Assembly (NCBI GenBank): GCA_018716285.1
Contig: DVKD01000025.1
Span: 42,000-105,999 of the forward strand
DNA: 64,000 nucleotides
Reading direction: 5' to 3'
From: Candidatus Merdivicinus faecavium
GTDB taxonomy: Bacteria; Bacillota; Clostridia; Oscillospirales; Ruminococcaceae
Positions 1 through 47,064 of the stretch are shown here, piece after piece; position 1 is the first letter of the stretch, and every line of letters begins with the position of its first letter. The notes under the pieces were generated by a model. It had not been told where the DNA came from. It ran no database searches and saw only the letters and a list, made by a program, of their open reading frames with translations. The translations under genes and the position numbers were made by a program.

Positions 1-991
1 GCAGCAGGATGAAAAACGGCGCGCCGATGACGGCGGTCAGGATGGAGACCGGGATCTCGGCGGCGGTTGCGCAGCGGGCCACCGTGTCGATGACCAGCAT
101 GAAAATCGCCCCCAGCCCCATGCTCGCCGGCATGACCCGCTGGTTGTTGCTGCCGAAAATCATCCGGGAAATGTGCGGGATTAAAAGCCCGACCCAGCCG
201 ATCACCCCGCAGAGGGAGACAACCGAGGCGGTCACCATCGCCGCGCCGAGGATAACCACCGCCCGCACGAGCTTTACCCGCACGCCGAGGGAGGACGCTT
301 CCTCCTCGGTGAGGGTCATTGCGTTGAGCTTCCAGCGGCATAAATAGAGGATCACAAGCCCCGCCAGGATGAAGGGCGCGCCGAGCATCAGCTTTTCGGC
401 CGTCGTCCCGGAGAGGGAGCCCATCAGCCAGAAGGTGATGGCGGGCAGCACATCCTGCGGGTCGGCCACATATTTGACCAGCGAGACGAGGGCCGAAAAG
501 AGGGCGCTGACCACCATCCCGGCCAGGACGATCATGACGATGGAGGAGCGGCCGCTCCGCTTGTCGGCGCTGACCAGGTAGACAAGCCCGACGGCCAGCA
601 CCCCGGCCCCCAGCGCGAAGACCTGGGTCATGATGCCCGAAAGGCCGAGCAGGATGGCGAATACCGCCCCGAAGGAGGCCCCTGTCGCCACCCCCAGCGT
701 GTCAGGGGTGGCGAGCGGGTTGGCAAACAGGGCCTGGAAGGCGGCGCCCGCCGCGCTCAAGCCCGCGCCGGCCAGCAGAGAGAGGAGGATGCGGGGGAGG
801 CGGACGTTCAAAACGGTGTTGCGCATGTTGTCGGTGACCTCCGCCGCCCCGGGCAGCCCGGGGAAGAGGACGGCGAGGACCTGCCGCACCGGGATCTGAT
901 ACCGCCCCAGCGCCAGCGCGGCGACCGAGAGGATCAGGATGGCCGCGATGATCCCCACCGCCCAGAGGCGCGATTTGACCGGTTTTTCCAT
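1..991 (-). CDS. FecCD/BtuC-family ABC importer permease (iron-chelate/corrinoid type); C-terminal end runs off the window
   Basis: Absent from the ORF track because there is no stop in the window. My reverse-strand translation from ATG at 991 gives MEKPVKSRLWAVGIIAAILIL...RLPRILLSLLAGAGLSAAGAAFQALFANPLATPDTLGVATGASFGAV...VIGAPFFILL, a typical FecCD signature. AGGGGG RBS upstream. The + strand ORFs at 9..899 are shadows. Confidence 0.85.
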   Translation of the reverse strand, partial: MEKPVKSRLWAVGIIAAILILSVAALALGRYQIPVRQVLAVLFPGLPGAAEVTDNMRNTVLNVRLPRILLSLLAGAGLSAAGAAFQALFANPLATPDTLGVATGASFGAVFAILLGLSGIMTQVFALGAGVLAVGLVYLVSADKRSGRSSIVMIVLAGMVVSALFSALVSLVKYVADPQDVLPAITFWLMGSLSGTTAEKLMLGAPFILAGLVILYLCRWKLNAMTLTEEEASSLGVRVKLVRAVVILGAAMVTASVVSLCGVIGWVGLLIPHISRMIFGSNNQRVMPASMGLGAIFMLVIDTVARCATAAEIPVSILTAVIGAPFFILL

Positions 992-1001
992 ACAGTACCC
1001 C

Positions 1002-2207
1002 CTAGCGGATAATGGTCACGCCGCCCGCGGAGGAGGGATTGTACATCCGGTCGATCTGCTCGTCGGTCAGGGAGACGCCGTACAGCTCTTCGTAGTAGTC
1101 CCGCACCTCGGCGGTGATGTCGATATCCGCAAACAGGTCGGGATAGACCGTCTTGGCCATCCAGAGGAAGGTGACGGGGGTGTCGGCGCTGGGGGTGTAG
1201 CTGCGGTAGGTGCCGAGCGGCATCTTGTAGACCGCCCCGTCCTGGACCGCCTGCACGCTCGACCAGTCGTAGCCGCCGATGGTGTTGTTTAAGACGTCCT
1301 CGGGCTGGGCGGTGGTGAAGTTCGTGATCATGATGATGTCCGGGTTCCACTGGTAGACCTGTTCCATCGTGATGACCGCGTTGGAATTGTCGGCCGTGAC
1401 CTCCTCGGCGGCGTTCCTCGCGCCGATTGCGTCGGCCCAGTACTGGCCGAAGAAGTTTTTGCCTGAGGTGATGATCTGGTTTTCATCATACTGGTAGAGG
1501 AAGAGGATGGATTTCTTCTCCTCCGCGGGGATGTCCGCCACCCGCTCCTGCACGAGGTCGTAGACCTCCTTGCTGTAGGCGGAGATTTCCTCGCTCTTGC
1601 TGCTTTCGGGGAAGATCTGGCTCAAAAGGTCGATCCACTGATCGTAGGTTTCGAGGATGTCGTAGCCGAATTTGCTCGGGGAGATGCCGACGGCGGGGAT
1701 GCCGGCGTTCTCGATGGCGTCCATGAGGTCGGTGCTGCTCGCGTTGACTAATACGACGTCAGGATCAAGGTTTAAAAGCTCCTCGACGTTTAAGTTGCCG
1801 CCCTGCATGAAGCTGGTGTCCGCCTCGAGGATCTCGGGGAAGAGCTCACCCAGCAGCCCGGATTCGGCGGCGGTCATGCTGGACGGGTGGATGCCGACGA
1901 TCTTTTCGGCGGAGCCGAGGAAAACGGTCAGGACCGAAGCGATGGGGAGGATGTCGGTGGTGACGACCCGGTCGATCTCATTGGGGACCTCGACCTCCCG
2001 CCCGGCGTGGTCGACGATGACATGGGTCGCGGAAGCTTCCGCGCTCTCCGCGCTTTCGGGAGAAGCGGCGCTGCTCTCCGCGGACGAAACGGCGGAGGAA
2101 GCGGAGGACTCCGCAGAGGATCCGCCGGCGCCGTCCGCGGAGCAGCCCGCGAGGGCGGTCAGGGCGAGGGAGGCGCTTAACAAAAGGGCAAGGATGCGTT
2201 TTTTCAT
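1002..2207 (-). CDS. ABC transporter substrate-binding lipoprotein, periplasmic-binding-protein type 2 (siderophore/heme/cobalamin class)
   Basis: Start trimmed to MKKRILALLLSASLALTALAGC (lipobox). A Ser/Ala-rich linker follows, then a BtuF/FhuD-like body (DRVVTTDILPIASVL..., DPDVVLVN, NPDIIMI). Lies 10 nt upstream of the permease start. Confidence 0.85.
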   Translation of the reverse strand: MKKRILALLLSASLALTALAGCSADGAGGSSAESSASSAVSSAESSAASPESAESAEASATHVIVDHAGREVEVPNEIDRVVTTDILPIASVLTVFLGSAEKIVGIHPSSMTAAESGLLGELFPEILEADTSFMQGGNLNVEELLNLDPDVVLVNASSTDLMDAIENAGIPAVGISPSKFGYDILETYDQWIDLLSQIFPESSKSEEISAYSKEVYDLVQERVADIPAEEKKSILFLYQYDENQIITSGKNFFGQYWADAIGARNAAEEVTADNSNAVITMEQVYQWNPDIIMITNFTTAQPEDVLNNTIGGYDWSSVQAVQDGAVYKMPLGTYRSYTPSADTPVTFLWMAKTVYPDLFADIDITAEVRDYYEELYGVSLTDEQIDRMYNPSSAGGVTIIR

Positions 2208-2226
2208 GGGAATTTTCCTTTCTGGG

Positions 2227-3396
2227 TCAAAATTTATGCTGAGAGAACCACTCGTCCCAGCTCTTTCCGACAAAAACCGGGATCTCCTTCCGCCAGATGC
2301 GGCCGGAGTAGCCCTCGTGGGGGAAGCGGAGGAAGGATGTGCCCTTGGGCAGCACGAACCGGTAGATCGGGTCGGCGATGACGAGGTCCGCCCCCTGCAT
2401 CGCGGCGGCGATCTCGCGCTCGCCGGTCTCCCGCAGGTCGCCGGGAGCGAGGGTTTCGCCGTCTAACTCGAGCGGGCAGAGGACGCGGGCCGGCTTTCCG
2501 GTGAAAAGCTCATACGCCCGCCGCATCGAAGCGGCCCAGACCGCCTCCCCGATGATGAGAGCGCCGCCCTCTCCGGGGATCTCCGCGCCCTTTGCCGGGA
2601 ACCGGCATTCCCCGGTTTGGGCGGCTTCCCGGACGGCGGACAGGTACCGCGCGGTCAAAGCTTCCCCCATCGGGATGCCGACGACGTAGGGCGCGCCGTA
2701 CTTCTCGCGGAAAAACTGCGCGAGCTTCAGGCCCGCCGAGGAGAGAACGAGGTTGACCGAGGCCCGCCCGGCCTCCATCAGTTCCTCCCAGCTGCTGCCC
2801 ATCGCCCAGCAGGAGCGGACGGGGATGCCGTTTTCTGCAAAGAGGGCCCGCAGCGCCTCGACATTCCCCATAACCGAAAAATCGAGCGGCGTCACCCCGA
2901 GCAGGTTGACCGACAGCCCCTCCGCGCGGGGAAGCGCCGGGCTAAACCGCCGCGCAACCGCTTCAAAGGCCATCGACGCGCCGGTCACATAGGACTGCAT
3001 CCCGGTTGTCTGGAAGCCGAAGCAGGGGACGCCGGTCCGGCGCTCGGCCGCCCGGGCGATGCCGGGCAGGTCGGCGCCCATCATGGCGGGGATGGGCGTC
3101 CCGGCGACGGCGCAGAAGCGCGGCTTCAGCTCCCGGATGCCCTCGACGAGGTCATGGAGGAGCTTCTCCTCGTCCCCGAGCATCGCCTCCATTTCGGTGA
3201 GGCCGGAGATGTAGATGCGGCTGGGCATGGTGTACCAGCGCGGCTCGTCGTGGGTGTTGTAGGTCGAGTTGCAGCCTGAGGCGTCATGCATGACGGTGAG
3301 CCCGCCCATCTCGTAAAGGGCCGAACAGACCCCCGAGACGTCGGCGGTGTAGGTGGACAAAATCCGATTGGCCTGTTTCAACACGAGCACCCCCAT
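2227..3396 (-). CDS. Nitrogenase component-1-type oxidoreductase, NifK/NifN/BchB-like subunit
   Basis: 389 aa. The N-terminus STYTADVSGVCSALYEMGGLTVMHDASGCNSTYNTHDEPRW resembles the Oxidored_nitro family. Overlaps the upstream D-like gene by 19 nt. An alternative GTG start lies a few codons downstream. Confidence 0.7.
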   Translation of the reverse strand: MGVLVLKQANRILSTYTADVSGVCSALYEMGGLTVMHDASGCNSTYNTHDEPRWYTMPSRIYISGLTEMEAMLGDEEKLLHDLVEGIRELKPRFCAVAGTPIPAMMGADLPGIARAAERRTGVPCFGFQTTGMQSYVTGASMAFEAVARRFSPALPRAEGLSVNLLGVTPLDFSVMGNVEALRALFAENGIPVRSCWAMGSSWEELMEAGRASVNLVLSSAGLKLAQFFREKYGAPYVVGIPMGEALTARYLSAVREAAQTGECRFPAKGAEIPGEGGALIIGEAVWAASMRRAYELFTGKPARVLCPLELDGETLAPGDLRETGEREIAAAMQGADLVIADPIYRFVLPKGTSFLRFPHEGYSGRIWRKEIPVFVGKSWDEWFSQHKF

Positions 3397-4703
3397 CCCT
3401 TGACCTGGATGATGGAAGGGACGTCCTTGCGGGTCTTCGCATCCGCTTCCATCTGTCCGGCAAGCTGTTTGATTCCCATAAAGCCGTAAAAGCCGCCGCC
3501 CTCGAGGAGGTTGACAAAATATTCGGTCCCGGTGAAGAAGGCCGCCTTCTGCCCGATGGCGAGCAGCCCGCCGGCTTGCGCCGCCTCGTCGCGGGGGAGC
3601 AGGCCCATCTTCATCTGGACGGTCGGGCGGAGGATCAGTTCCGGCGCGTGCTCCCGCAGCCAGCCGAAGGCCGGTTTCTCCGCCGCCGAAAAGCTGTCCG
3701 CGTAGACCGAGACGACCCGGAAGCCGTGCTCCAGGAGCAGCTTCGCGAGCCCCAGCGGCCGGGAAGTCGCGGTGTAGTCGATGGAGACGGCCATCCCGTC
3801 CAGCTCCCGCGCCGCGTGGGCGAGGGCTTTTTCCGCCTCCTTCCGCAGGGCGGCTGCATCCGGCATCGGGAGGGAGAGCCGCCTGCAGAGGGCGCGGAGG
3901 TTCCCCTCAATTTCCTCAAAATCGTAGCTGAGCGGGAGGTGGAGATGGGGAATGGAAAGCCTTTTTTCCAGCGCCTCCCCGCCGGGAACGGCGGCGGGGT
4001 TGGTGGTGATGGAGAGGGCCGCGGCGGCGTGGCGCTGGTACTCCTCATAATTTTTGCAGCCGGCAATTTCGAGCACCTCATATCCCTCCGCACGGAGGAG
4101 CTTCATCATTTCGCCCTCCGGGGAGAGGCGCTCGTTGTTGCCGAGGATGGCGACGAGCTTTTCCTCCCGCGGGGCGGGCTTTAAGAGGCTGTAAAGCTGC
4201 CGGCGCATTGTCGCGTCGGGCGGGAGCTTGCTCTTGCGCATGATGGGGTTCATGTAGCAGTCGGTGAAGTCGACCGCCGGGTACTTTTCCCGCAGCTTTT
4301 TGAAGACGTAGTCCATATCGCAGCCGGTGAAGTGGTGGATGCAGCTGGTGTACAGGAGCAGGGCGCGGGGGAGCTTCTCCATCCCGGAAAAAATCTCGTC
4401 CACCCCGTCCAGAATGAGCTGTTCCATATCCCCGTCGAGGAGGTTGTTCTCCTGCACCGCGATGGTGGAGAAGCGGTCGAACGCCCCCATCTCGGCGGCG
4501 GTCAGGACGACGCCCCGCAGGCAGCCTTCGGCGCAGACAAAGATCTGGTGGCTCTCCGGGATGAGCATCCCGACGTGGACGATGTTCCAGCTCCCCCGCG
4601 CCGGTGCGGCGTACTCGAGCCCCGAGGGGAAGGGGGCGGGGAAGGACGCCTCCGAAACGGGGACGACGGTCCCTTCCCGGGTGATTTCATGCAGGTCGAT
4701 CAT
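3378..4703 (-). CDS. Nitrogenase component-1-type oxidoreductase, NifD/NifE/BchN-like subunit
   Basis: 441 aa. Cys-containing segments IFVCAEGCLRGV and LLLYTSCIHHFTGCD are typical of NifD/E/BchN-like proteins. ATGA start/stop overlap with the NifH-like gene. Confidence 0.7.
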   Translation of the reverse strand: MIDLHEITREGTVVPVSEASFPAPFPSGLEYAAPARGSWNIVHVGMLIPESHQIFVCAEGCLRGVVLTAAEMGAFDRFSTIAVQENNLLDGDMEQLILDGVDEIFSGMEKLPRALLLYTSCIHHFTGCDMDYVFKKLREKYPAVDFTDCYMNPIMRKSKLPPDATMRRQLYSLLKPAPREEKLVAILGNNERLSPEGEMMKLLRAEGYEVLEIAGCKNYEEYQRHAAAALSITTNPAAVPGGEALEKRLSIPHLHLPLSYDFEEIEGNLRALCRRLSLPMPDAAALRKEAEKALAHAARELDGMAVSIDYTATSRPLGLAKLLLEHGFRVVSVYADSFSAAEKPAFGWLREHAPELILRPTVQMKMGLLPRDEAAQAGGLLAIGQKAAFFTGTEYFVNLLEGGGFYGFMGIKQLAGQMEADAKTRKDVPSIIQVKGWGCSC

Positions 4704-5467
4704 GCGTCCTCCCTCCCGCAGGCTCTGAGCACCTGCTGCGCGAGCTTCTCATATTCCCGCGCCATATCGCTCTCCGGGAAGGCAGCGAGGACGGTCTTGC
4801 AGAGCTCCTCCGCCCTCTGGACATCTGCGCTGAAGGGGAGGTCGCCGACGATTTCGGTGCGGATGTCCTCCGCCAGCTCGCGGACCTTTTCCTCCTCGCG
4901 GGGGACGCCGCGGCGGTTTAAGATGATGCCGCCCAGCGAAGCGTAGCCCCGGTCGGCGAAGTGCTCGACGGCGAGGGCGATGTTGGCGGCCGCGTGGATG
5001 GCCATATTCTCCCCCGAGGTGAGGAGGAAGACCTTTTCGGCATAGCCCTCCCGGATGGGCATGGCGAAGCCGCCGCAGACGACATCGCCCAGCACGTCGT
5101 AGAGGACGACGTCCGGCTTATAGACGGAGAAGGCGTTTTTCTCCTCCAATAGCTCGAGGGCCGCGATGATGCCCCGCCCGGCGCAGCCGGTGCCCGGGGT
5201 GGGGCCGCCCGCCTCGACGCAGAGGACGCCGCCGTCCCCGACCGCGACCAGATCCTCCAGGGAAGCGGCCGCCTTGCCCTTCTGGCGGAGGGTGTCGAGG
5301 ACGGTGGGGAGCATTTTCCCGCCGCGAAGGTTTACCGTCGAGTCGGCCTTCGGGTCGCAGCCGATCTGCATGACGGTCAGGCCGCGTTTGGCGAACGCCA
5401 TCGAAAGGTTGGCGGCGGTGGTCGATTTGCCGATGCCGCCCTTGCCGTAAATTGCCATCTTGATCAT
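4700..5467 (-). CDS. NifH/BchL/CfbC-family ATPase (nitrogenase iron protein-like)
   Basis: MIKMAIYGKGGIGKSTTAANLS (P-loop), CDPKADST (switch I), GCAGRG and VVCGGFAMP (both 4Fe-4S cysteine ligand contexts). Start trimmed to the ATG that forms an ATGA overlap with the radical SAM stop. Confidence 0.9.
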   Translation of the reverse strand: MIKMAIYGKGGIGKSTTAANLSMAFAKRGLTVMQIGCDPKADSTVNLRGGKMLPTVLDTLRQKGKAAASLEDLVAVGDGGVLCVEAGGPTPGTGCAGRGIIAALELLEEKNAFSVYKPDVVLYDVLGDVVCGGFAMPIREGYAEKVFLLTSGENMAIHAAANIALAVEHFADRGYASLGGIILNRRGVPREEEKVRELAEDIRTEIVGDLPFSADVQRAEELCKTVLAAFPESDMAREYEKLAQQVLRACGREDA

Positions 5468-6522
5468 TGTTTGTCCTCCCATCTGTAGTCGCCGCGGCCC
5501 GGGTCCGGCTCGTAGCCGATGGCCCGGATGGATTCCCGCAGCGCCGCGAGATTGTCGGCAGCCGCTCCGGCCGTGCCGAGCTTGTTGTTGTAAAGCTGGT
5601 ATCTCGCCCGCGCCTCATCCGGGGAGATGTTGGGCATGACCACGTTCGCCCCCGCGAGGATGCCGCGCTCCCGTCCGCCGGGCAGCAGCGTCCCGAGGGC
5701 GGTGGTGGCAGGCAGCAGCACCCTGGGGTGCATCAGCCGGACGATGCTCAGGAGAAAGAGGGTGTCCTCCGCCGTGCCGGCCGGCTCGTCCCGGAAGGGG
5801 GTGTCCTTGTGGGGGAGGAAGGGCCCCATCCCGATCATCTGCGGCTTTAAGTCCTGCATGAACAGGAGATCCTCCGCGAGGTTTTCCGGCGTCTGGAAAG
5901 GCGCGCCGACCATCATCCCGCAGCCGGTCTGGAAGCCTAAGGCGATGAGGTCGTGGAGGCAGCGGACGCGGTTTTCGAAGGACATTTCCGGCGGGTGGAG
6001 CTTCCCGTAATGGGCGGGGGAGGCGGTCTCATGCCGGAGGAGATAGCGGTCGGCCCCCGCTTCGCGGAAGCGGGCGTAGCTCTCGTAAGGCTTCTCGCCG
6101 ATGGAGAGGGTGACGGCGCAGTCCGGGTAGGCCGCCTTGACGGCCCGGACGATGGAGACGACCCGTTCGTCGGTGAAATACGGGTCCTCCCCGCCCTGGA
6201 GGACAAAGGTCCGAAGCCCCTGCTCATGCCCCCACCTGCAGCAGAGGAGGATCTCCTCCTCCGAAAGGCGGTAGCGCAAAGCTGCGCGGTTGCTCCGCCG
6301 GATGCCGCAGTAGAGGCAGTCGTTTCTGCAATAATTCGTAAATTCGATGAGCCCGCGGAAATAGACCTTCCGCCCGAATTCCCGCAGCGCGGTCTCCCGG
6401 GCGAGGGAGGCGGCCGTTTCGCAGTCCTCCGGGCTGCGGGTCGCGATGAGGCGGGCAAGCTCTTCACGGGGAAGGCGCTCCCCGCGGGCGAGGGCCAGGA
6501 TGCGGGCCTGGTTGCCGTTCAC
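5464..6522 (-). CDS. Radical SAM enzyme of the HydE/PylB/BioB-like group
   Basis: NYCRNDCLYCGIRRSN (CxxxCxxC radical SAM motif in the HydE-type context), ~350 aa TIM-barrel size, GTG start with an AAAGGA RBS. First gene of the operon. Confidence 0.8.
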   Translation of the reverse strand: MNGNQARILALARGERLPREELARLIATRSPEDCETAASLARETALREFGRKVYFRGLIEFTNYCRNDCLYCGIRRSNRAALRYRLSEEEILLCCRWGHEQGLRTFVLQGGEDPYFTDERVVSIVRAVKAAYPDCAVTLSIGEKPYESYARFREAGADRYLLRHETASPAHYGKLHPPEMSFENRVRCLHDLIALGFQTGCGMMVGAPFQTPENLAEDLLFMQDLKPQMIGMGPFLPHKDTPFRDEPAGTAEDTLFLLSIVRLMHPRVLLPATTALGTLLPGGRERGILAGANVVMPNISPDEARARYQLYNNKLGTAGAAADNLAALRESIRAIGYEPDPGRGDYRWEDKQ

Positions 6523-6758
6523 AGCAGATCATCCTTTCTAAAAAGAAACGCAAAAAACCCTTTTGTCCTTCCGGGGAAGGCAAAACGCCGTTCCGGAAAG
6601 GGCAAAAGGGCGGAAAAATCCTCACAAATGCGCAGAAGGTTCTTCCCGACCGCCTTATGACTCCGGAGCGACCCATTGTCGGTTCAGTGCGACAGGTTTT
6701 GCAGGCGCGGTTTGCGGGCAGGCGCACCTTTCCGCTCACCGATAAGCTGTACAGATTC
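6523..6758 (-). promoter_or_regulatory. Long structured 5' leader of the radical SAM/nitrogenase-like operon; riboswitch-type architecture, class unassigned
   Basis: About 235 nt lie between a sigma-A-like promoter and the GTG start. Several GC helices and a terminator hairpin plus U-run sit just before the RBS. Only weak resemblance to cobalamin (GGAAAGGTG..CCCGC..GCACTG) or Moco (GGAAAGG, CTCCGGAG) riboswitch cores. Confidence 0.4.
6551..6586 (-). terminator. Candidate attenuator/intrinsic terminator inside the leader
   Basis: Minus strand reads TTTTGCCTTCCCCGGAAGGACAAAAGGGTTTTTTGCG: a hairpin followed by a T-run, about 28 nt before the start codon. Confidence 0.45.
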
Positions 6759-6787
6759 AGTATAGCACAATTTCCCAGGGAATACAA
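6759..6787 (-). promoter_or_regulatory. Sigma-A-type promoter for the nitrogenase-like operon
   Basis: Minus strand: TTGTAT, 17 nt spacer, TGcTATACT (extended -10). Confidence 0.55.
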
Positions 6788-6825
6788 GAGAATTTTTTGG
6801 GTTTTCCGGCAGGTCCCGTTGCTAT

Positions 6826-6854
6826 TTGACAACCCCCTCCGACGGGCGTATAAT
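6826..6854 (+). promoter_or_regulatory. Sigma-A-type promoter for the MATE gene
   Basis: TTGACA, 17 nt spacer, TATAAT. Confidence 0.6.
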
Positions 6855-6897
6855 GTAAAAAGAAAGTAAAACGATTCGAAAAAGGGAGGCCTCTTTT

Positions 6898-8259
6898 TTG
6901 CAGAATGATTTTTCGAAGGGCAGTGTGGGGCGGAATATCCTCATGCAGGCGATCCCGCTGACCATCGCCCAGCTCATCCAGCTTCTTTATAATGTAGTCG
7001 ACCGCATCTACATCGGCCACCTGCCCAGCGCCGACGGCCTTGCGCTGACCGGCATCGGACTGGCTTTCCCCCTCATTTCCCTGGTCTCCGCCTTTACCAA
7101 CCTGTTCGGGATGGGCGGGGCGCCGCTCTGCTCCATCTCCCGCGGCGGCGGGAAAAATGAGGAGGCGGAGCGGATCCTCGGGACGACGGCGTGGCTGCTG
7201 CTCGTTTCCTCGGTCGCGATCACGGCGGCCTGCTACCTTTTCAAAAAACCGGTCCTCTACCTCTTCGGCGCAAGCGACCAGACCTACGGCTATGCCGACG
7301 AATACTTAAGCGTCTACCTTATCGGCACCGTCTTTGCGATGGTCGGCCAGGGGCTCAATTACTTCATCAACGCGCAGGGCTTTGCCCGTTTCGGCATGTG
7401 CACCACCCTTTTGGGCGCGGTGCTGAACATCATCCTCGACCCGCTCTTCATCTTTGTTTTCCATATGGGGATCATGGGCGCGGCTGTCGCGACGGTGATC
7501 TCCCAGGCGGCGTCGGCGGTCTGGGTGGTCTGGTTCCTGACCGGGAAAAAGGCGATCCTGCGGCTCCGCCGGGAGTATTTCCGCTTTGACCCGCAGCTGT
7601 TCGGGCGGATCACGGCGCTCGGGCTCTCGAGCTTTATCATGTCGGCCACCAACTGCGTCGTCCAGGTGACCTGCAACAACACCCTGCGTCAGTACGGCAG
7701 CGACCTTTACATCGGGGTCATGACGGTGCTCAACTCGGTGCGGGACATCATCATGCTCCCGGTCTCGGGCATTACCAGCGGTTCCCAGCCGGTGCTCGGC
7801 TTCAACTACGGCGCGGGGGAGTACCGGCGGGTGCGCAAGGGGATCCTTTTTACGCTGCTGCTCGGCTCGATCTACTCGCTGGCGGCCTGGATGGCTGTGC
7901 TCTGCTTCCCGGGCTTTTTCATGCGGCTGTTCAGCTCGGACGCCGCGACCATAAAAGCCGGCAGCGAGGCGATGCGCATTTACTTCTTCGGCTTTATCAT
8001 GATGGTCTTCCAGTTTTCGGGCCAGTCGACCTTTGTGGGGCTGGGGCGCTCGAAACAGGCGATCTTCTTCTCCATCCTGCGCAAGATCATCATCGTCGTC
8101 CCGCTCACGCTGCTGCTCCCGCGGATGGGATTTGGGGTGGACGGCGTCTTTATCGCCGAGCCGGTCTCCAACGCCATAGGCGGCGGGCTCTGCTTCCTCA
8201 CTATGATGCTGACGGTCTGGCGGGAGCTGGGGCGGAAAGAGCGGGAAAAGGCGCAGTGA
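6898..8259 (+). CDS. MATE family efflux transporter
   Basis: GRNILMQAIPLTIAQLIQLLYNVVDRIYIGHL is a typical MATE N-terminus. 12-TM-like hydrophobicity. TTG start after an AAAGGGAGG RBS. Confidence 0.9.
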   Translation: MQNDFSKGSVGRNILMQAIPLTIAQLIQLLYNVVDRIYIGHLPSADGLALTGIGLAFPLISLVSAFTNLFGMGGAPLCSISRGGGKNEEAERILGTTAWLLLVSSVAITAACYLFKKPVLYLFGASDQTYGYADEYLSVYLIGTVFAMVGQGLNYFINAQGFARFGMCTTLLGAVLNIILDPLFIFVFHMGIMGAAVATVISQAASAVWVVWFLTGKKAILRLRREYFRFDPQLFGRITALGLSSFIMSATNCVVQVTCNNTLRQYGSDLYIGVMTVLNSVRDIIMLPVSGITSGSQPVLGFNYGAGEYRRVRKGILFTLLLGSIYSLAAWMAVLCFPGFFMRLFSSDAATIKAGSEAMRIYFFGFIMMVFQFSGQSTFVGLGRSKQAIFFSILRKIIIVVPLTLLLPRMGFGVDGVFIAEPVSNAIGGGLCFLTMMLTVWRELGRKEREKAQ

Positions 8260-9023: not shown

Positions 9024-10265
9024 TTATCGGGAAACTTCTTCCATTGCGATTTCAGCCCAGCGGGTGAGGCGCTCCGGCTGGCTGCGGACGGTGGAGATGT
9101 CCTTGAGGATCAGCTCGAGGTTCGCGCCGTGGGCTTTGGCGGCGTCGACGGTGCGGCGGATATCGCGGCGGATCTCCTCCTCGTCGAGGGAATCCCCGGC
9201 GACCAGGGCGGGGGAGGGCTTGTTGGACATGATGAGCTCCCTGCCGATCTTTTCGGCAAAGGCTTCGCGGTTGCTCCAGGGGCTGCAGGAGACCTTGCGG
9301 ACGTGGGGGATCTTTTTGACATGCTCGAGGCGGTCGTCCAGGCGGTCGCAGCAGCCGTAATAGATCATCCCGAAGGGCTCGGCCATCCGCTGGATGTAGG
9401 GCAGCTCAAATTCCGCGAAGAATGCGGGGGAAACCGAGGAGAAGAGCTGCGCCAGCCCGAAGGCCCAGCAGTTTTCCGAGCTGCTCCCCCTGCCCGCGCC
9501 GAAGTCGGGCAGCAGCTCGTCGGTGTAGATGTAGGAGCAGTGGCAGGTGTTGATCTTGTCCTCATGGACGCCGAGCTCGTTGGCTTCCCGGATGCCGTTT
9601 AAGACCGAGCGGGTGAGTCGGTCCATGATCTTGTGGATGAATTCGGGGCGGTCGATCATGTCGATGTAGGCGTTTTCGACCCCCATCAGGGTGCTGATGT
9701 AGTCCCAGATGCCGAGATGGAACTGGATGCCGCCGCTCAGGCGGACGGGCGCCACCCCGTCGAAGAGGGCGGAGGCCGCCTGGAAGCGGGCTTCGCTCTC
9801 GGCCGCGTCATGGGTGATGTGCATGTCGGCGAGCCGCTCGATGTCCTCCTCGGTTTCGAGCTGGTTGATGTAGTGGTGGGAAAGGACGTCGCCGGCGACC
9901 GAGGCGTCGCGGGTGTCCTCCTGCACGGCGATGCCGTAGCCGCTGCTCGAAACCGCCTTGGGGATGGTGATGAAGGGCTCGACGACCATATCGACCGGGA
10001 AATGCTCCCACTTGTAGATGGTGGTGCGCAGCTGCCACTCGACGCCCCGCCAGAAGGGGTCGGACACCTGGCAGATGAGGGAGCTGTCGACGCTCAGCTC
10101 ATTCCAGGGGAGCTGGTCGATGACAACCATTGGCCGCTCCATTTTACTGCGGTTGAGGGCCTTCCAGAGGTCGCGCTTCTCCGCCTGGACGGGGAGAGAG
10201 GCAATTTCCATATAGCGCGAAGCGAGGTCGCGGAGGATCTGCTTTTCCTGGGGATTCAGTTGCAT
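9024..10265 (-). CDS. Uroporphyrinogen-decarboxylase (URO-D)/MtaA-like family protein; function unknown
   Basis: 413 aa. The C-terminal half (GMIYYGCCDRLDDRLEHVKKIPHVRKVSCSPWS...) resembles URO-D-like TIM-barrel proteins. Assignment is from memory of the family only. Confidence 0.45.
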   Translation of the reverse strand: MQLNPQEKQILRDLASRYMEIASLPVQAEKRDLWKALNRSKMERPMVVIDQLPWNELSVDSSLICQVSDPFWRGVEWQLRTTIYKWEHFPVDMVVEPFITIPKAVSSSGYGIAVQEDTRDASVAGDVLSHHYINQLETEEDIERLADMHITHDAAESEARFQAASALFDGVAPVRLSGGIQFHLGIWDYISTLMGVENAYIDMIDRPEFIHKIMDRLTRSVLNGIREANELGVHEDKINTCHCSYIYTDELLPDFGAGRGSSSENCWAFGLAQLFSSVSPAFFAEFELPYIQRMAEPFGMIYYGCCDRLDDRLEHVKKIPHVRKVSCSPWSNREAFAEKIGRELIMSNKPSPALVAGDSLDEEEIRRDIRRTVDAAKAHGANLELILKDISTVRSQPERLTRWAEIAMEEVSR

Positions 10266-10411: not shown

Positions 10412-11158
10412 ATGCTCATCGATTACGGCTGTTCGCCGGTCAATGCAGACTGGCAGGTAAACGAAAAAACGGCCTGCGGTTTTGTGCGGGTCTATGACAT
10501 CTACGAGGGGGAGGTATTCTGCCGGGAAGGGGTCTCCGAACCGGGGGAGGAAATTCTCCTGCGGCCGGGGAGCATCTGCCTTTTCCCCTCGGCGGCGCCC
10601 TATTTTCTGCGCCAAAATCCCCAAAATCGGCTCTTCTGCACCCATCTGCATTTGGACATCGCGCCTGCGCTGCTGCGGCGGACGCTCACCCTGGAAGCGC
10701 CGCAGGGGTCGATTGTGCGCGGGATCTTCGACGCGCTGCGGGCGGCGGTCTGCGGCGGCGAGGGGCGGGTGGTGAGGCTGCTTTCCGACGCCTTCGAGCA
10801 GTACTGCGTCGGGCGGGAGCTCTTTGCCATGCCCGAAGGGGAGATCGCGCGGGCGCTGGCGGCGATGGCCGCGGAATTTCGCAAAAACTGGTCTGTCGCC
10901 GAGCTGAGCGCCCTGGCGGGCTACTCGGAGCCTTATTTCATCCGGCGGTTCCGGGCCGAGACGGGGGTTTCGCCGCATCAATACCTGATCGGCCGGCGGA
11001 TGAAGGAGGCGCTGCGCCTTTTGTGGAGCGGACTGCCGGTCTCCGAGGTTGCGCGGCGCTGCGGCTACGCGGAGCTCAAGGCCTTCAGCCGCTCTTTCCG
11101 CCGGTGGTACGGCCTCTCTCCCAGTCAGTACCGGGAGAGCGGGCGGCTCTACCCGTGA
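10412..11158 (+). CDS. AraC family transcriptional regulator
   Basis: C-terminal double HTH: WSVAELSALAGYSEPYFIRRFRAETGVSPHQYLIGRRMKEALRLL...VARRCGYAELKAFSRSFRRWYGLSPSQYRE. Divergent from the URO-D-like gene. Confidence 0.85.
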   Translation: MLIDYGCSPVNADWQVNEKTACGFVRVYDIYEGEVFCREGVSEPGEEILLRPGSICLFPSAAPYFLRQNPQNRLFCTHLHLDIAPALLRRTLTLEAPQGSIVRGIFDALRAAVCGGEGRVVRLLSDAFEQYCVGRELFAMPEGEIARALAAMAAEFRKNWSVAELSALAGYSEPYFIRRFRAETGVSPHQYLIGRRMKEALRLLWSGLPVSEVARRCGYAELKAFSRSFRRWYGLSPSQYRESGRLYP

Positions 11159-12122: not shown

Positions 12123-15100
12123 ATGAAGAAACGCAGCAACCCGTTATGGAAAGAGACCCTCCGCACCATCTGGCAGACACGGACCCGCTTCCTCTCATTG
12201 GTGGCGATCGTGGCGCTCGGGTGCGGCTTTTTTGCCGGCCTCAAGGCGACCAGCCCGGATATGAAGCTGACGGCGGACAATTATTTTGCGGATACCCGGC
12301 TGATGGACCTTCATTTAATGTCCACCTTCGGCCTAAACGACGAGGATATCGCAGCGGTGCGCGAAGTCGAGGGGATCCGCGGCTTTGCGGCGGGATACAG
12401 CGCAGACCTTCTTCTGCGGACCGACGAGGCCGCCCAGACAGTGGTCAAGGTCTACTCCCTGCCCGAAGGCGAGGAGTCGGACGAAAACTACCTCAACCGC
12501 CCGCTCCTGCTGGAGGGCCGGCTGCCGGAGCAGTCGGGCGAATGTGTGATCGACAAGAATTTTAACAGCGGCTTAAGCGCCAATGGCCAGGTGGAGATCG
12601 GGGATACCATCACCTTGCTGTCCGGCAGCACGGACGCGGATATCGCGGATACCCTCGCGCGGGATACCTTCACCGTCGTCGGGATCGTGCAGTCCCCGCT
12701 CTACATCGGCTTTGAGCGCGGACACAGCACCATCGGAGACGGCGAGGTCGACGCTTACCTGATGATCCCGGAAGAGGATTTCACCCTCGAGGTCTATACC
12801 GACGCCTATCTCACGTTGGAATCGACCGCAGGCCTTTCCGCTTTTTCGAGCGATTATGAAACATCGGTTGACGAGGCGATCGACCGTTTTGAGGAGGTCG
12901 CCGCCCGCCGGGGCGAGGAGCGCTACAACGAGATTTACGAGGAAGCCCAGGCCGAGATTGACGATGCGAAGGCGGAGCTTGCCGATGCCGAGCAGGAACG
13001 GGACGAGGCGCTCGCCGAGGCGGAACAGGAGCTGGCCGACGCGGAAGCCGAGCTGGCCCAGGGCCGCCGCGACTATGAGGACGGTCTTGCCACCTACAAC
13101 CAGGAGATCCGGGAGGCGGAAGAACAGCTTGCCGACGGGGAGCAGCAGCTCGCCGACGCGGAAAATGCCTATGAGGAGGCCCTTGCGGAATACGAGCAGG
13201 GCCGCAGCGACTACGAGGCCGCCCTGCCGGAGGCCCAGGCGCAGCTCGAAAGCTATCGGGAGCAGCACGCCCAGCTTGAGGAGCAGGCCGGCCCGGCCAT
13301 CGCTCAGGTTGACAGCGCGCGGGAGCTGCTCACATCGGTCGAGGCTCTGGTGCAGAGCTTCGCCGAGCGTTCGGTCCCCTCCATTGAGGCGGCGGAAGCC
13401 TCTGAGCAGCAGGTCATCACGGCTGCCGACGGCCTTCTCGCCGTCCTGCCGGAGGATTCTGTCCCGCAGGGGACCAGCCTGACCGGCCTTTTGACCGAGT
13501 ATATCTCCGCGCGGCAGAGCCAGAAGGATTACCTTTCCCGCCAGATCGGCGCCCTGACCGGGACGATCGAGACCGCGCTGGACGCCCAGGACGAGGCGCT
13601 CGCTGAGGCGCGCAGCGGCATCGAGCAGCTGACCGCCGGCATCGCCGAAGGGGAGCAGCAGCTCGCCGACACGCTGGCGGAATTGGATGCGGCCGAGGCC
13701 CAGCTCGCCGAGACCCGCACCCTCCTCGATGAACAGGACGAAACCCTCTCGCAGGGGTGGCAGGACCTGGCGCGGGAGCGCAGCAGCGGCCGCGAGGAGC
13801 TGGAAGCCGCCCGCATTGAGCTGGAAGACGGGGAGGCGCAGCTTGCCGAGGCCCGCGCCGAATATGAGACCGAAAAGGCGGATTCCGCGCAGGAGATCGA
13901 GGATGCCCGCGCCGAAATCGCCCAGGCGGAACAGGACCTCGCCGACCTCGGCGAGCCGACCTGGTACGTCTGGGACCGGGACAACAATCCCGACTATTCG
14001 AGCTATGCGGAGGACACCGAGAAGGTGGACGCCGTCGCGGCGGTCTTCCCGGTCTTCTTCATCCTGGTGGCGGCGCTGGTCTGCCTGACGACGATGACCC
14101 GGATGGTCGAGGAGCAGCGGACCCAGATCGGCACCTTTAAAGCGCTGGGTTATGGGCGCGGCGCGATCATGGCCAAATACATCGGCTATGCGGCGGCCGC
14201 AAGCGTGATCGGCGCGGCCGTCGGGCTGGCCATCGGCTTCAAGCTCTTCCCTTATGTGATCATCAACGCCTACCGGATTATGTATGAAATCCCCAACGCG
14301 GTCGCGCCGATCCGCTGGGGGCTGGCGGGCGCCTGCATGGCGGTGGCCCTGCTCTGCATGTGCCTGACCACCTTTGCCGCCTGCGCCAAACAGACCGACG
14401 AGGTCCCCTCCCAGCTGATGCGCCCCAAAGCCCCCAAAAACGGCAAACGGGTGCTGCTCGAACGGATCGGATTTATCTGGAAGCGCCTCAATTTCAGCAA
14501 GAAGGTCACCGTCCGCAACCTCTTCCGGTATAAGCGCCGGGTGCTGATGACCATTGTCGGCATAGCGGGCTGTACGGCGCTGCTGCTGACCGGCTTCGGG
14601 CTGCGCTATGCCATCAGCTCGATCGGGGATAAGCAGTACGAACGGGTGTTTGTTTACGATACGACAGTCACCCTGGACGACAAGCTCACCGCCTCCGAGC
14701 TGGCCGATTACGCGGAGGCGCTTTCCGGGGTGGAGGGCGTCGCCGAATCCATGCCGGCCGCCTCCCGCAGCATCGACGTCCGCGGGGAGAATAAGATTGT
14801 GAGCATCACCCTCATGGTGCCGCAGGATCCCGAGCAGATGGGCAGCTATATCGACCTGCACGAGCGGGTGAGCGGAGAGAAGCTCTCCCTTTCGGACGAC
14901 GGGGTTATCATCAACGAGAAGCTGTCGCGGCTGCTGGATGTGAAGGAAGGGGACAGCATCACCCTTGTAAACCCCAACGGCAGGCCGGTGCCGGTAACAG
15001 TGCTCGGTATCTCGGAAAACTACGCTTTAAACTACGTCTACATGACCCCGGCTCTCTACCGGCAGGAATTCCGGGAGACGCCGGTCTACAGCACGGTGCT

Positions 15101-17677: not shown

Positions 17678-17752
17678 TGGTACGCCTGATTGGAATCGAA
17701 CCAACGCACCCGGCTCCGGAGGCCGGTGCTCTATCCACTGAGCTACAGGCGC
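17678..17752 (-). tRNA. tRNA-Arg (anticodon CCG), CCA encoded
   Basis: Reverse complement GCGCCTGTAGCTCAGTGGATAGAGCACCGGCCTCCGGAGCCGGGTGCGTTGGTTCGATTCCAATCAGGCGTACCA folds as a cloverleaf. Anticodon loop is CTCCGGA. Confidence 0.9.
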
Positions 17753-39533: not shown

Positions 39534-39609
39534 CTGGGTGTGGCGCAGATGGTAGCGCGCTACCTTGGGGTGGTAGAGGCCGCTGGTTCAAATCCAGTCA
39601 CTCAGACCA
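39534..39609 (+). tRNA. tRNA-Pro (anticodon GGG), CCA encoded
   Basis: CTGGGTGTGGCGCAGATGGTAGCGCGCTACCTTGGGGTGGTAGAGGCCGCTGGTTCAAATCCAGTCACTCAGACCA. 7-bp acceptor stem and anticodon loop TTGGGGT. Confidence 0.9.
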
Positions 39610-46988: not shown

Positions 46989-47064
46989 TGGAGCTGATAA
47001 CCAGATTCGAACTGGTGACCTCGTCCTTACCAAGGACGTGCTCTGCCTACTGAGCCATATCAGC
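46989..47064 (-). tRNA. tRNA-Thr (anticodon GGT), CCA encoded
   Basis: Reverse complement GCTGATATGGCTCAGTAGGCAGAGCACGTCCTTGGTAAGGACGAGGTCACCAGTTCGAATCTGGTTATCAGCTCCA. Anticodon loop TTGGTAA. Confidence 0.9.

Follow-up and report, generated by a model that had tools for sequence, protein, structure and literature searches.

The DNA analyzed here, a 64-kb stretch of contig DVKD01000025.1 from Candidatus Merdivicinus faecavium (the window), carries at its start, on the minus strand, an operon in which genes for a set of nitrogenase-like (NFL) proteins are joined to the hydrogenase maturase gene hydE and to the genes of an ATP-binding cassette (ABC) importer. The locus is a real operon, complete save for the importer ATPase gene past the window edge, and it is one member of a module that is widespread in Clostridia and Synergistaceae. 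With a probability of roughly 45%, judged from sequence and gene order, the module is an accessory system that would link the import of a metal and an ATP-driven reduction with the assembly of hydrogenase active sites. It is accessory since hydrogenase maturation works without it in many organisms. Hydrogenase metallocofactor assembly was not considered in the original prediction, a note made on this DNA, which had suggested the reductive processing of an imported metal chelate or tetrapyrrole. Unassigned NFL enzymes are an acknowledged open problem, and the gene context is unusually informative in this case: a deep-branching NFL clade, frequent among the Clostridia of human and animal guts, is linked to HydE, HydF and TM1266 or to HypFCDE, plus a metal-type importer. 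This set of partners differs from that of every characterized NFL system.

Operon structure and encoded proteins

The operon begins with the radical SAM gene hydE (6522..5464; GTG start, 352 amino acids (aa)), followed by nflH for a NifH-like ATP-dependent reductase (5467..4700; 255 aa, beginning MIKMAIYGKGGIGKS), nflD for a very divergent NifD/NifE-like subunit (4703..3378; 441 aa) and nflK for a divergent NifK/NifN-like subunit (3396..2227; 389 aa). The gene of the substrate-binding lipoprotein (SBP) of a type II ABC importer (2207..1002; PF01497, 401 aa, lipobox LAGC with Cys22) and that of a FecCD/BtuC-type permease (991..1) follow; the window holds the first 330 aa of the permease, and the rest lies beyond its edge. 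The Pfam matches across the operon were Radical_SAM, Fer4_NifH, Oxidored_nitro (twice), Peripla_BP_2 and FecCD. ATGA start/stop overlaps join hydE to nflH (5467–5464) and nflH to nflD (4703–4700), nflD and nflK overlap by 19 nt (3396–3378), and gaps of 19 nt (2226–2208) and 10 nt (1001–992) precede the SBP and permease genes, respectively. The six genes of the original prediction were thus confirmed at their places, as were all of its overlaps and gaps, and the junctions uphold its claim of a single translationally coupled unit. The ATPase that it had presumed beyond the window was found in a 98%-identical metagenomic contig (L085), in which the complete permease gene encodes 339 aa and the gene of a 264-aa ABC ATPase closes the operon ahead of gltX.

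The promoter (6787–6759, minus strand) was read directly from the sequence as TTGTAT, 17 nt and TGcTATACT, i.e., a -35 element (6787–6782), a 17-nt spacer and an extended -10 element with TG at 6767–6766 and TATACT at 6764–6759. The pair TTG...TGCTATACT is kept upstream of the leader in seven relatives (L001, L003, L005, L009, L010, L011 and L083), in line with the earlier assignment of this promoter. A generic consensus scan called neither the operon promoter nor its terminator because of the weak -35 element and the long hairpin. Within the 64-kb window, further NifH/D/K-like genes, a second PF00148 pair and a NifB-like radical SAM gene are all lacking, so that the reported lack of nifB, nifE and nifN nearby holds for its full length. 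Neither a motif nor a homolog of HydA, HydF, HydG or TM1266-like proteins was found in the 64 kb.

The radical SAM protein scored 524 bits against the HydE equivalog model TIGR03956 (cut-off 254.6) and 153 bits against the PylB model (cut-off 348), and along its entire length it shares about 50% identity with the crystallized HydE of T. maritima (5few, 288 bits). Its CX3CX2C motif (C65/C69/C72) is invariant among relatives. By these scores and this identity, it is a bona fide, ordinary HydE ortholog, and not the HydE/PylB-like enzyme that had been proposed. An NFL-specific paralog of HydE was ruled out. HydEs that are 61–62% identical to the window HydE occur in loci without NFL genes, either alone amid housekeeping genes (L087, Synergistaceae) or, with equal similarity, inside a canonical TM1266-hydE-...-hydG-...-hydF locus (L089), and the HydEs within NFL clusters of other species are 52–87% identical to it. 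Thus, NFL-importer genes have joined ordinary maturase genes, repeatedly and in interleaved order. The original prediction had allowed that the radical SAM protein might be the only HydE of a genome with a HydF/HydG-dependent hydrogenase and be unlinked to the NifH-like genes elsewhere; it is an ordinary HydE indeed, but in most genomes it is linked to the NifH-like genes. Since this linkage includes HydF and TM1266-like genes, or HypFCDE, the module points to hydrogenase metallocofactor assembly.

NflH matched PF00142 with 295 bits. Its P-loop (GKGGIGKS), the residues Cys95 and Cys131, which are equivalent to Cys97 and Cys132 of NifH, and all switch residues are invariant in 84 relatives. NflH therefore has the P-loop, the switches and the two bridging-cluster cysteines of a NifH-type ATPase of the nitrogenase superfamily, the first and last of which had been recognized before. 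Its scores stayed below the NCBIfam cut-offs for nifH (315 of 394 bits), CfbC (305 of 402 bits), BchL (207 of 345 bits) and BchX (184 of 331 bits), and its best matches in the PDB were MarH (9fmg_D, 240 bits) and NifH (about 235 bits).

NflD and NflK matched PF00148 with 66 and 113 bits, respectively. No match to NflD was found by phmmer in the PDB at E < 10, the Mar complex 9fmg included. The AlphaFold2 model of NflD (mean confidence, pLDDT, 89) has a nitrogenase component-1 fold and is about equally distant from NifN, NifK, NifE, VnfK, AnfK, MarD and BchN, with TM-scores of about 0.6 and 13–19% identity; chain 9fmg_A of the Mar complex is matched by fold only, with 15% identity. NflK had weak PDB matches to NifE (1e-15) and BchB (4e-11), and hhalign aligned NflD with NflK at 95% probability. 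Taken together, the Pfam scores, the NflD model and the hhalign result describe two paralogous PF00148 subunits with the three-domain fold.

In 80-plus relatives, C61, C121 and C149 of NflD are invariant and C57, H123, H124, C128 and C216 are mostly conserved, and C42 is the sole invariant cysteine of NflK. Ligand positions, which the original prediction had proposed to align, were mapped by chaining the hhalign alignment of NflD and NflK to that of NflK and NifE. C61 and C121 of NflD are the equivalents of NifD Cys62 and Cys154, and an equivalent of Cys88 is missing. At the position of NflD C121, i.e., that of the third P-cluster cysteine, NflK has proline, and at the position of NifE Cys250 and NifD Cys275, NflD has threonine and NflK has serine. 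According to this mapping, a P-cluster set is therefore absent from NflDK, as are FeMo-co and L-cluster cysteines; of the P-cluster positions, only C61 and C121 of NflD and C42 of NflK retain cysteine. The likely cofactor of NflDK is one [4Fe-4S]-type cluster at the subunit interface, like that of DPOR or CfbD, and a further site may be present.

Characterized clades were considered in turn. A true nitrogenase (Nif/Vnf/Anf, groups I–III) was rejected based on the missing P-cluster cysteines, the Thr/Ser at the Cys275 position and scores for the nifD, nifK and nifH models far below their cut-offs. CfbCD (group IV-B) was rejected since CfbC scored 305 of 402 bits, the CfbD model TIGR03282 matched NflK only, with 17 bits (cut-off 268), and both a D and a K subunit are present. 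DPOR/COR (group V) did not fit the Bch scores, the BchB model reaching 60 bits (cut-off 490), and the neighborhoods hold no chlorophyll genes. MarBHDK (group IV-C) was excluded since a NifB-like gene and the P- and L-cluster ligands are absent and NflD has no sequence match to the Mar complex. IsrBHDK (group IV-F), compared by description and not by sequence, has a context and a type of radical SAM protein unlike those of the operon, and the described context of group VI from Elusimicrobia, also compared by description only, differs as well (suites of B12-radical SAM and HemN_C proteins). With all NCBIfam equivalog cut-offs missed and no PDB match to NflD, NflHDK is, on present scores, a nitrogenase-superfamily set outside the Nif, Cfb, Bch and Mar clades, as had been claimed.

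Similarities to known systems are nevertheless evident. DPOR (BchLNB/ChlLNB) and CfbCD also combine a NifH-like ATPase with a component 1 that lacks P-cluster and FeMo-co, probably with a single interfacial [4Fe-4S] cluster and a bound metal-containing substrate. They differ from the operon proteins by the missed family cut-offs, the low identity (13–19%) and TM-score (about 0.6) and the lack of a tetrapyrrole context, and CfbD is a homodimer without a K subunit. NifH/NifEN is similar in that NifE and NifN are the best sequence and fold matches of NflK and NflD, and in the proposed logic of an ATP-dependent reductase and a scaffold serving the metal site of another enzyme. In contrast to NifEN, NflDK has Ser/Thr at the NifE-Cys250 position and no L-cluster ligand, and there is neither a NifB nor a nitrogenase.

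Importer and gene neighborhoods in other species

The SBP matched PF01497 with 71 bits and the permease PF01032 with 277 bits. A FecCD permease, a class III SBP and, from contig L085, an ABC ATPase are present, and the original assignment to the FecCD/PF01497 importers was upheld as a type II importer. The best NCBIfam match of the permease was BtuC (196 bits, below cut-off). The solved relatives of the SBP (model pLDDT 78) were ranked by sequence and fold. The closest was 4ovk from Veillonella, whose ligand is unknown (30% identity, TM-score 0.88), and next in rank were MolA of H. influenzae, which binds molybdate/tungstate, TM0189 of T. maritima and an 'iron' SBP of Eubacterium. These were followed by H. 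pylori CeuE with Ni-(His)2 and Yersinia YiuA with iron or small iron chelates, and the heme binders HmuT and BhuT and the classical siderophore binders ranked below these binders of small metal species. Scores against the BtuF and IsdE models were far under the cut-offs (20–29 bits). According to this ranking, a small metal species is therefore a more probable substrate than a tetrapyrrole or a siderophore of large size. Residues 23–57 of the SBP (2038–2141, minus strand) form a low-complexity Ser/Ala/Glu-rich tether after the lipobox cysteine, with a model pLDDT below 50; such a tether is a typical linker of Gram-positive lipoproteins.

In many relatives, the importer ATPase carries a C-terminal domain of the TM1266 family ('iron-only hydrogenase system regulator'), with ABC_tran and the TM1266-like domain found in one polypeptide by Pfam (L023, 14557–15618; L073, 7064–8188; L038, 7018–8103). 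The TM1266-like proteins scored 121 bits against TIGR03959 (cut-off 61) and are homologous to PDB entry 2nzc. In the lineage of the window, neither such a fusion nor a stand-alone TM1266-like gene was found. BtuCD-F/MolBC-A and MetNI/ModBC resemble the importers in their FecCD permease, a class III SBP near MolA and, as regards the relatives, an ACT-like C-terminus of the ATPase. MetNI and ModBC differ in that the regulatory domain of the NFL relatives belongs to the TM1266 family, which is not described on a transporter. By analogy to MetN and ModC, the ACT-like domain on the ATPase suggests substrate-dependent trans-inhibition. The fusion would connect the solute that is taken up with the signal to which TM1266 responds in canonical hyd loci, and since TM1266-like proteins also occur in hyd loci free of NFL genes, the effector would belong to normal Hyd biology.

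Relatives of NflD were found in the thousands in Clostridia and Synergistaceae, many of them from gut samples; for the Blautia hydrogenotrophica ortholog alone, the index of the assembly collection lists 1420 blocks. In contigs representing one genome per species, 301 loci were confirmed, of which 80 were fetched and mapped by tblastn and clustering of open reading frames (ORFs). The gene order recurred in the 80 fetched loci from different species. Chance juxtaposition, for which the original prediction had wanted the neighborhood checked, is therefore excluded. In arrangement A, that of the window, the order is hydE-nflH-D-K-SBP-permease-ATPase; hydF and a small TM1266-like gene often come next. 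Arrangement B consists of a TM1266-like gene, the permease gene, the gene of an ATPase::TM1266-like fusion, hydE, nflH-D-K, the SBP gene and hydF. In a Candidatus Merdivicinus locus (L081), a NUDIX hydrolase gene (12507–12980) lies between nflK and the SBP gene.

A third type was found in acetogenic Clostridium and has a second, distant NFL set, hypF-(hypC)-hypD-hypE and orthologous nflHDK, without the importer. These Hyp-type loci (L032, L037, L040, L057, L061 and L072) belong to Clostridium ljungdahlii, C. ragsdalei, C. carboxidivorans and relatives, and the D' and K' proteins of the nflH'D'K' set are 24–30% identical to D and K of the window. A few kb downstream of the Hyp-type cluster, C. 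carboxidivorans has a flavodoxin gene and feoAB. HypF, HypD and HypE were identified by Pfam; HydF, the partner in the other arrangements, scored 557 bits against TIGR03918 (cut-off 326).

Partners were counted in the 31 loci with at least 7 kb of flanking DNA on both sides. SBP and permease genes were present in 29 of them, HydE in 26 and HydF in 20; a TM1266-like domain, often fused to the ABC ATPase, was encoded in 26 and HypFCDE in two. At least one maturase-type gene was found in all 31. HydG was absent within 10 kb of the NFL genes in the fetched loci L001–L086 and was seen only in the non-NFL loci L089 and L090. The feoB gene adjoins the NFL cluster in four unrelated loci (L007, 2629–4859; L014; L044, 13–2040; L057, 17993–20377). 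Ferrous-iron genes lie at 1527–3754 and 17321–19462 of L014, and feoA is also present in L007, L014 and L057; a flavodoxin gene is near the NFL cluster in one locus. Sulfur-assimilation genes were not conserved in the 80 loci. As compared with canonical hyd loci (TM1266-hydE-hydG-hydF; T. maritima, L089), the NFL loci have the same HydE, HydF and TM1266-like families, above equivalog cut-offs, but the NFL module lacks HydG and has an NFL reductase and a type II importer inserted.

The association of NFL and maturase genes was noted in passing in 2012, with one sentence of speculation, and was never characterized since. Dos Santos et al. (2012; BMC Genomics 13:162; PMC3464626) described an uncharacterized 'NifHEN-like' clade in Firmicutes, methanogens and Desulfitobacterium, and in Coprococcus catus and other Firmicutes these NFL proteins, with a 2+1 cysteine pattern, were found beside hydrogenase maturation proteins. 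Matched by description, this clade resembles the NFL proteins studied here, with two cysteines at P-cluster positions in the D/E-like and one in the K/N-like subunit, no FeMo-co ligands, ABC transporter and hydrogenase maturation neighbors and paired NFL copies in some Firmicutes. The anatomy of HydE, HydF and TM1266, the ATPase fusion, the leader RNA and a function are not part of that paper. A review of 2026 in Chem Rev (PMC13474568) lists Nfa, Cfb, Mar, Isr, DPOR/COR and group VI as NFL systems and judges genetic context to be of little help for unassigned ones; hydrogenase maturases or such an importer are not mentioned. A literature search for Mlab_1040, Dhaf_1539, CLM_0808 and Clos_0313 returned only the 2012 paper, one linking 'nitrogenase-like' with 'hydrogenase maturation' or HydF found nothing beyond it, and one for TM1266 gave genome lists only. 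A pyrite-proteomics paper on Methanococcus (PMC9431491) was irrelevant to the operon, and papers on Heliophilum and R. palustris NFL proteins concern Mar/Nfa-type systems. Thus, the claim that no system of this composition has been characterized stands, although the association itself is not wholly new.

Leader RNA

A 5' leader of about 230 nt (6523..6752, minus strand) lies between the promoter and the GTG start codon of hydE. Its presence had been predicted, but it is more than a spacer, since it holds a conserved structured RNA core (6643..6702; covariance model R1, 58.2 bits, E 1e-13) and an intrinsic terminator (6552..6613). In the minimum free energy fold of the leader, the terminator is a long hairpin, CCGCCCUUUUGCC...GGACAAAAGGG, followed by U6. 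A known riboswitch was ruled out: no family of Rfam 15 gave a gathering-score match in the window or in seven loci, with only noise at E up to 10 in 6400–7000.

The leaders of arrangement A share a core of about 55 nt and then a strong terminator. The consensus of the core is roughly UCGY-CUGA...GAC-GA-UGR-loop-YCG-GA-GUC...AAGGCGR. In the proposed fold, an outer helix of UCGY.CU with AGRYGR encloses a hairpin (GAC-GA-UGR/YCG-GA-GUC) that contains a tandem G-A step. Across the 23 different sequences compared, pairing was possible in 92% of the cells, compared with 37–47% in slid controls, and five pairs of the core showed changes on both sides. The covariation of the core was 0.267, compared with 0.173 after shuffling, and none of 500 shuffles reached it. 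R1 also matched five copies outside the seed, all at operon heads, and all genuine matches to the core are directly upstream of nflH or hydE-nflH, with none elsewhere. Typical arrangement-B loci gave no match to R1 even when its filters were switched off, and canonical hyd loci had none either.

When metagenome contigs were scanned for the exact pattern, about 70 of the 87 hits were chance hits lacking the upstream UCG/CUGA context. The 13 checked hits with this context (CCAG in L164) are all located about 100 nt upstream of nflH or hydE-nflH. L099 and L154 passed the CUGA filter and were discarded as chance matches, lacking the rest of the upstream context and the nflH/hydE genes. Copies of core and terminator were recorded in the window and among L001–L028, L083 and L094–L170.

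The conserved terminator hairpin of the relatives is GCCCUUU(U/C)GCC...GGC(A)AAAGGGC with a U-run. Its 5' arm (CCGCC-CUU in the window) could pair with the 3' side of the outer helix of the core (AAGGCGG), and this complementarity fits a putative terminator/antiterminator switch. The leader element may therefore be a riboswitch or a protein-binding attenuator, and it is kept as a candidate because the sequence diversity is modest. It provides an experimental handle, as its ligand would name the metabolite of the pathway.

Proposed function and further features of the window

In the proposed mechanism, the lipoprotein would capture a small extracellular metal species, most likely an iron-containing one, which the BtuCD-like permease and ATPase would import. 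NflDK may bind the imported species near its interfacial [4Fe-4S]-type cluster, as in DPOR or CfbCD, while NflH, as the dimer NflH2, would supply low-potential electrons and spend ATP. The reduced or released species would then be used for building the Fe-CO-CN site, with HydE/HydF as the assembly proteins or, in the variant of the acetogens, HypCD. The ACT-type domain of the TM1266 family would sense the cytoplasmic pool and throttle import, as in the trans-inhibition of MetN and ModC, and the leader RNA would end transcription when the effector is plentiful.

This assignment to hydrogenase active-site assembly is supported by several lines of evidence. The gene order is recurrent and interleaved, and TM1266-like domains are shared with NFL-free hyd loci. 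Orthologous NFL sets are found with Hyd-type as well as with Hyp-type machineries, both of which need iron and diatomic ligands. FeoAB is near four loci and flavodoxin near one, and the SBP falls into the subgroup of MolA, CeuE (Ni-His), YiuA and TM0189. The leader RNA occurs with these operons only, and the 2012 paper of Dos Santos et al. (PMC3464626) had made a similar suggestion independently. If the module feeds or bypasses Fe-CO-CN assembly, it would be a new component of hydrogenase maturation, could bear on the source of iron and CO in anaerobic maturation and would assign a sensor function linked to transport to the orphan TM1266 family. As the module is abundant in gut metagenomes, it also bears on gut H2 metabolism.

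Several observations weigh against this assignment. H-cluster maturation in defined in vitro and heterologous systems needs only HydE, HydF and HydG, and since these suffice, no maturation step is known to be missing. Simple iron chelates are reduced without an ATP-driven reductase. Some lineages carry only part of the gene set; that of the window is among them, with hydF and TM1266-like genes absent from the operon and from the 64 kb. In a locus from Synergistaceae (L023), the NFL and importer genes have neither hydE nor hydF in their vicinity, although the ATPase is fused to a TM1266-like domain, and a hydE of the same family (P0200) is found by itself where NFL genes are absent. The putative link to hydrogenases is drawn from the gene context of the loci. 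Finally, Dos Santos et al. (2012; PMC3464626) reported related NFL-plus-ABC clusters in a methanogen without an [FeFe]-hydrogenase.

General nutrient-metal acquisition, in which a chelate would be imported, NFL would release its metal cell-wide and the hyd genes would lie nearby through a shared cue such as iron status, is the foremost competitor and is rather unlikely; it comes close to the view taken in the original prediction. It would account for the importer being the most constant partner (29 of the 31 loci), for an SBP of a class that binds metal species, for FeoAB near four loci and for L023 with neither hydE nor hydF nearby. However, hydE and hydF are interleaved in the operon in many species, and the importer ATPase is fused to the hyd-specific TM1266-like domain. 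In addition, the promoter shows no Fur-box-like sequence by eye, and known chelate reductases are simple flavin or Fe-S enzymes.

Two further readings, both unlikely and about equally so, give NflHDK a more intimate part in the chemistry of the cofactor. According to the first, NflHDK and the importer would handle an organometallic or iron precursor, either in a HydG-independent or salvage route or with NflDK carrying an Fe-CO/CN cofactor built by HydE/HydF or HypCDEF. In the salvage form, an imported iron complex may be reduced on NflDK and handed to HydE/HydF; a HydG-independent route would explain why HydE, HydF and TM1266 were recruited but HydG never was. Both forms would make the leader RNA a new class of riboswitch sensing a metabolite of the pathway.

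According to the second, the dependence would be reversed, so that HydE/HydF, or HypFCDE in the acetogens, mature the NFL enzyme, NflDK holds an Fe-CO/CN-type or HydE-derived cofactor and the importer brings its metal or substrate. The order radical SAM-H-D-K parallels marBHDK, isrBHDK and nfaBHDK, NflD has extra conserved Cys/His residues (C57, H123, H124, C128 and C149), and the two NFL sets of the Hyp-type clusters recall nifDK plus nifEN; HydG is never in the cluster. These points are countered by the ordinary nature of HydE, which also occurs in canonical hyd loci, and by TM1266-like proteins in NFL-free hyd loci. Moreover, the products of Hyd and Hyp differ, so that one orthologous NFL using either would be less parsimonious.

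A small-molecule reductase similar to Mar/Isr with its own importer, acting on, e.g., an organosulfur compound or an oxyanion and co-opting HydE as its radical SAM partner, is improbable. MarBHDK and IsrBHDK (IV-C and IV-F) share the order radical SAM-H-D-K and co-regulation with an ABC importer, and NflH scored about as high with MarH (240 bits) as with NifH. The characterized group IV NFL enzymes cleave C-S bonds and are co-regulated with ABC transporters, the oxyanion binder MolA is the second-closest solved relative of the SBP, and the chemistry of HydE attacks a cysteine sulfur. However, the radical SAM protein of the operon is HydE and neither NifB-like nor BciD-like, no NifB/MarB homolog is present, and a sulfur-metabolism context is missing, with no sulfur-assimilation genes conserved in the 80 loci. 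NflD has no detectable sequence similarity to MarD, NflD and NflK lack the P-cluster and L-cluster ligands of Mar, and HydF, TM1266 and Hyp would be left unaccounted for.

Tetrapyrrole reduction, in which heme or a corrinoid would be imported and reduced in the manner of DPOR, COR and CfbCD, was suggested by the original prediction; it is unlikely and ranks last. In its favor, tetrapyrroles are the substrates of those NFL enzymes of known function that have [4Fe-4S] clusters only, BtuC is the best NCBIfam match of the permease and one source labels the Blautia SBP ortholog 'corrinoid ABC transporter substrate-binding protein'. However, the BtuC match is below cut-off, the heme binders HmuT and BhuT are less close to the SBP than the proteins for molybdate/tungstate, Ni-(His)2 or iron in small chelates, the BtuF and IsdE models score far under their cut-offs, and neither tetrapyrrole/cobamide genes in the neighborhoods nor a B12 riboswitch were found.

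Outside the operon, a perfect sigma-70 consensus promoter (6826–6854, plus strand; TTGACA, 17 nt, TATAAT; 12/12) lies back to back with the NFL operon promoter and drives a divergent MatE efflux gene (6898–8259). Further along the window, a 413-aa protein with a weak match to the uroporphyrinogen-decarboxylase family (29 bits) is encoded on the minus strand (9024–10265), and the adjoining, divergent gene (10412–11158, plus strand) encodes an AraC-type regulator. The gene of the 413-aa protein adjoins the operon in the 98%-identical contig L085 too, an arrangement that other species do not share. Rfam detected three tRNA genes, at 17681–17752 (minus strand), 39534–39606 (plus strand) and 46992–47064 (minus strand), and no other curated RNA family was matched in the 64 kb. 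Within 1–6800, many long ORFs run antisense over the real genes (e.g., 5953–6660, 2617–3279 and 1672–2466, plus strand); these are regarded as artifacts of the G+C content of about 65%, and the same antisense families recur in the loci of relatives.

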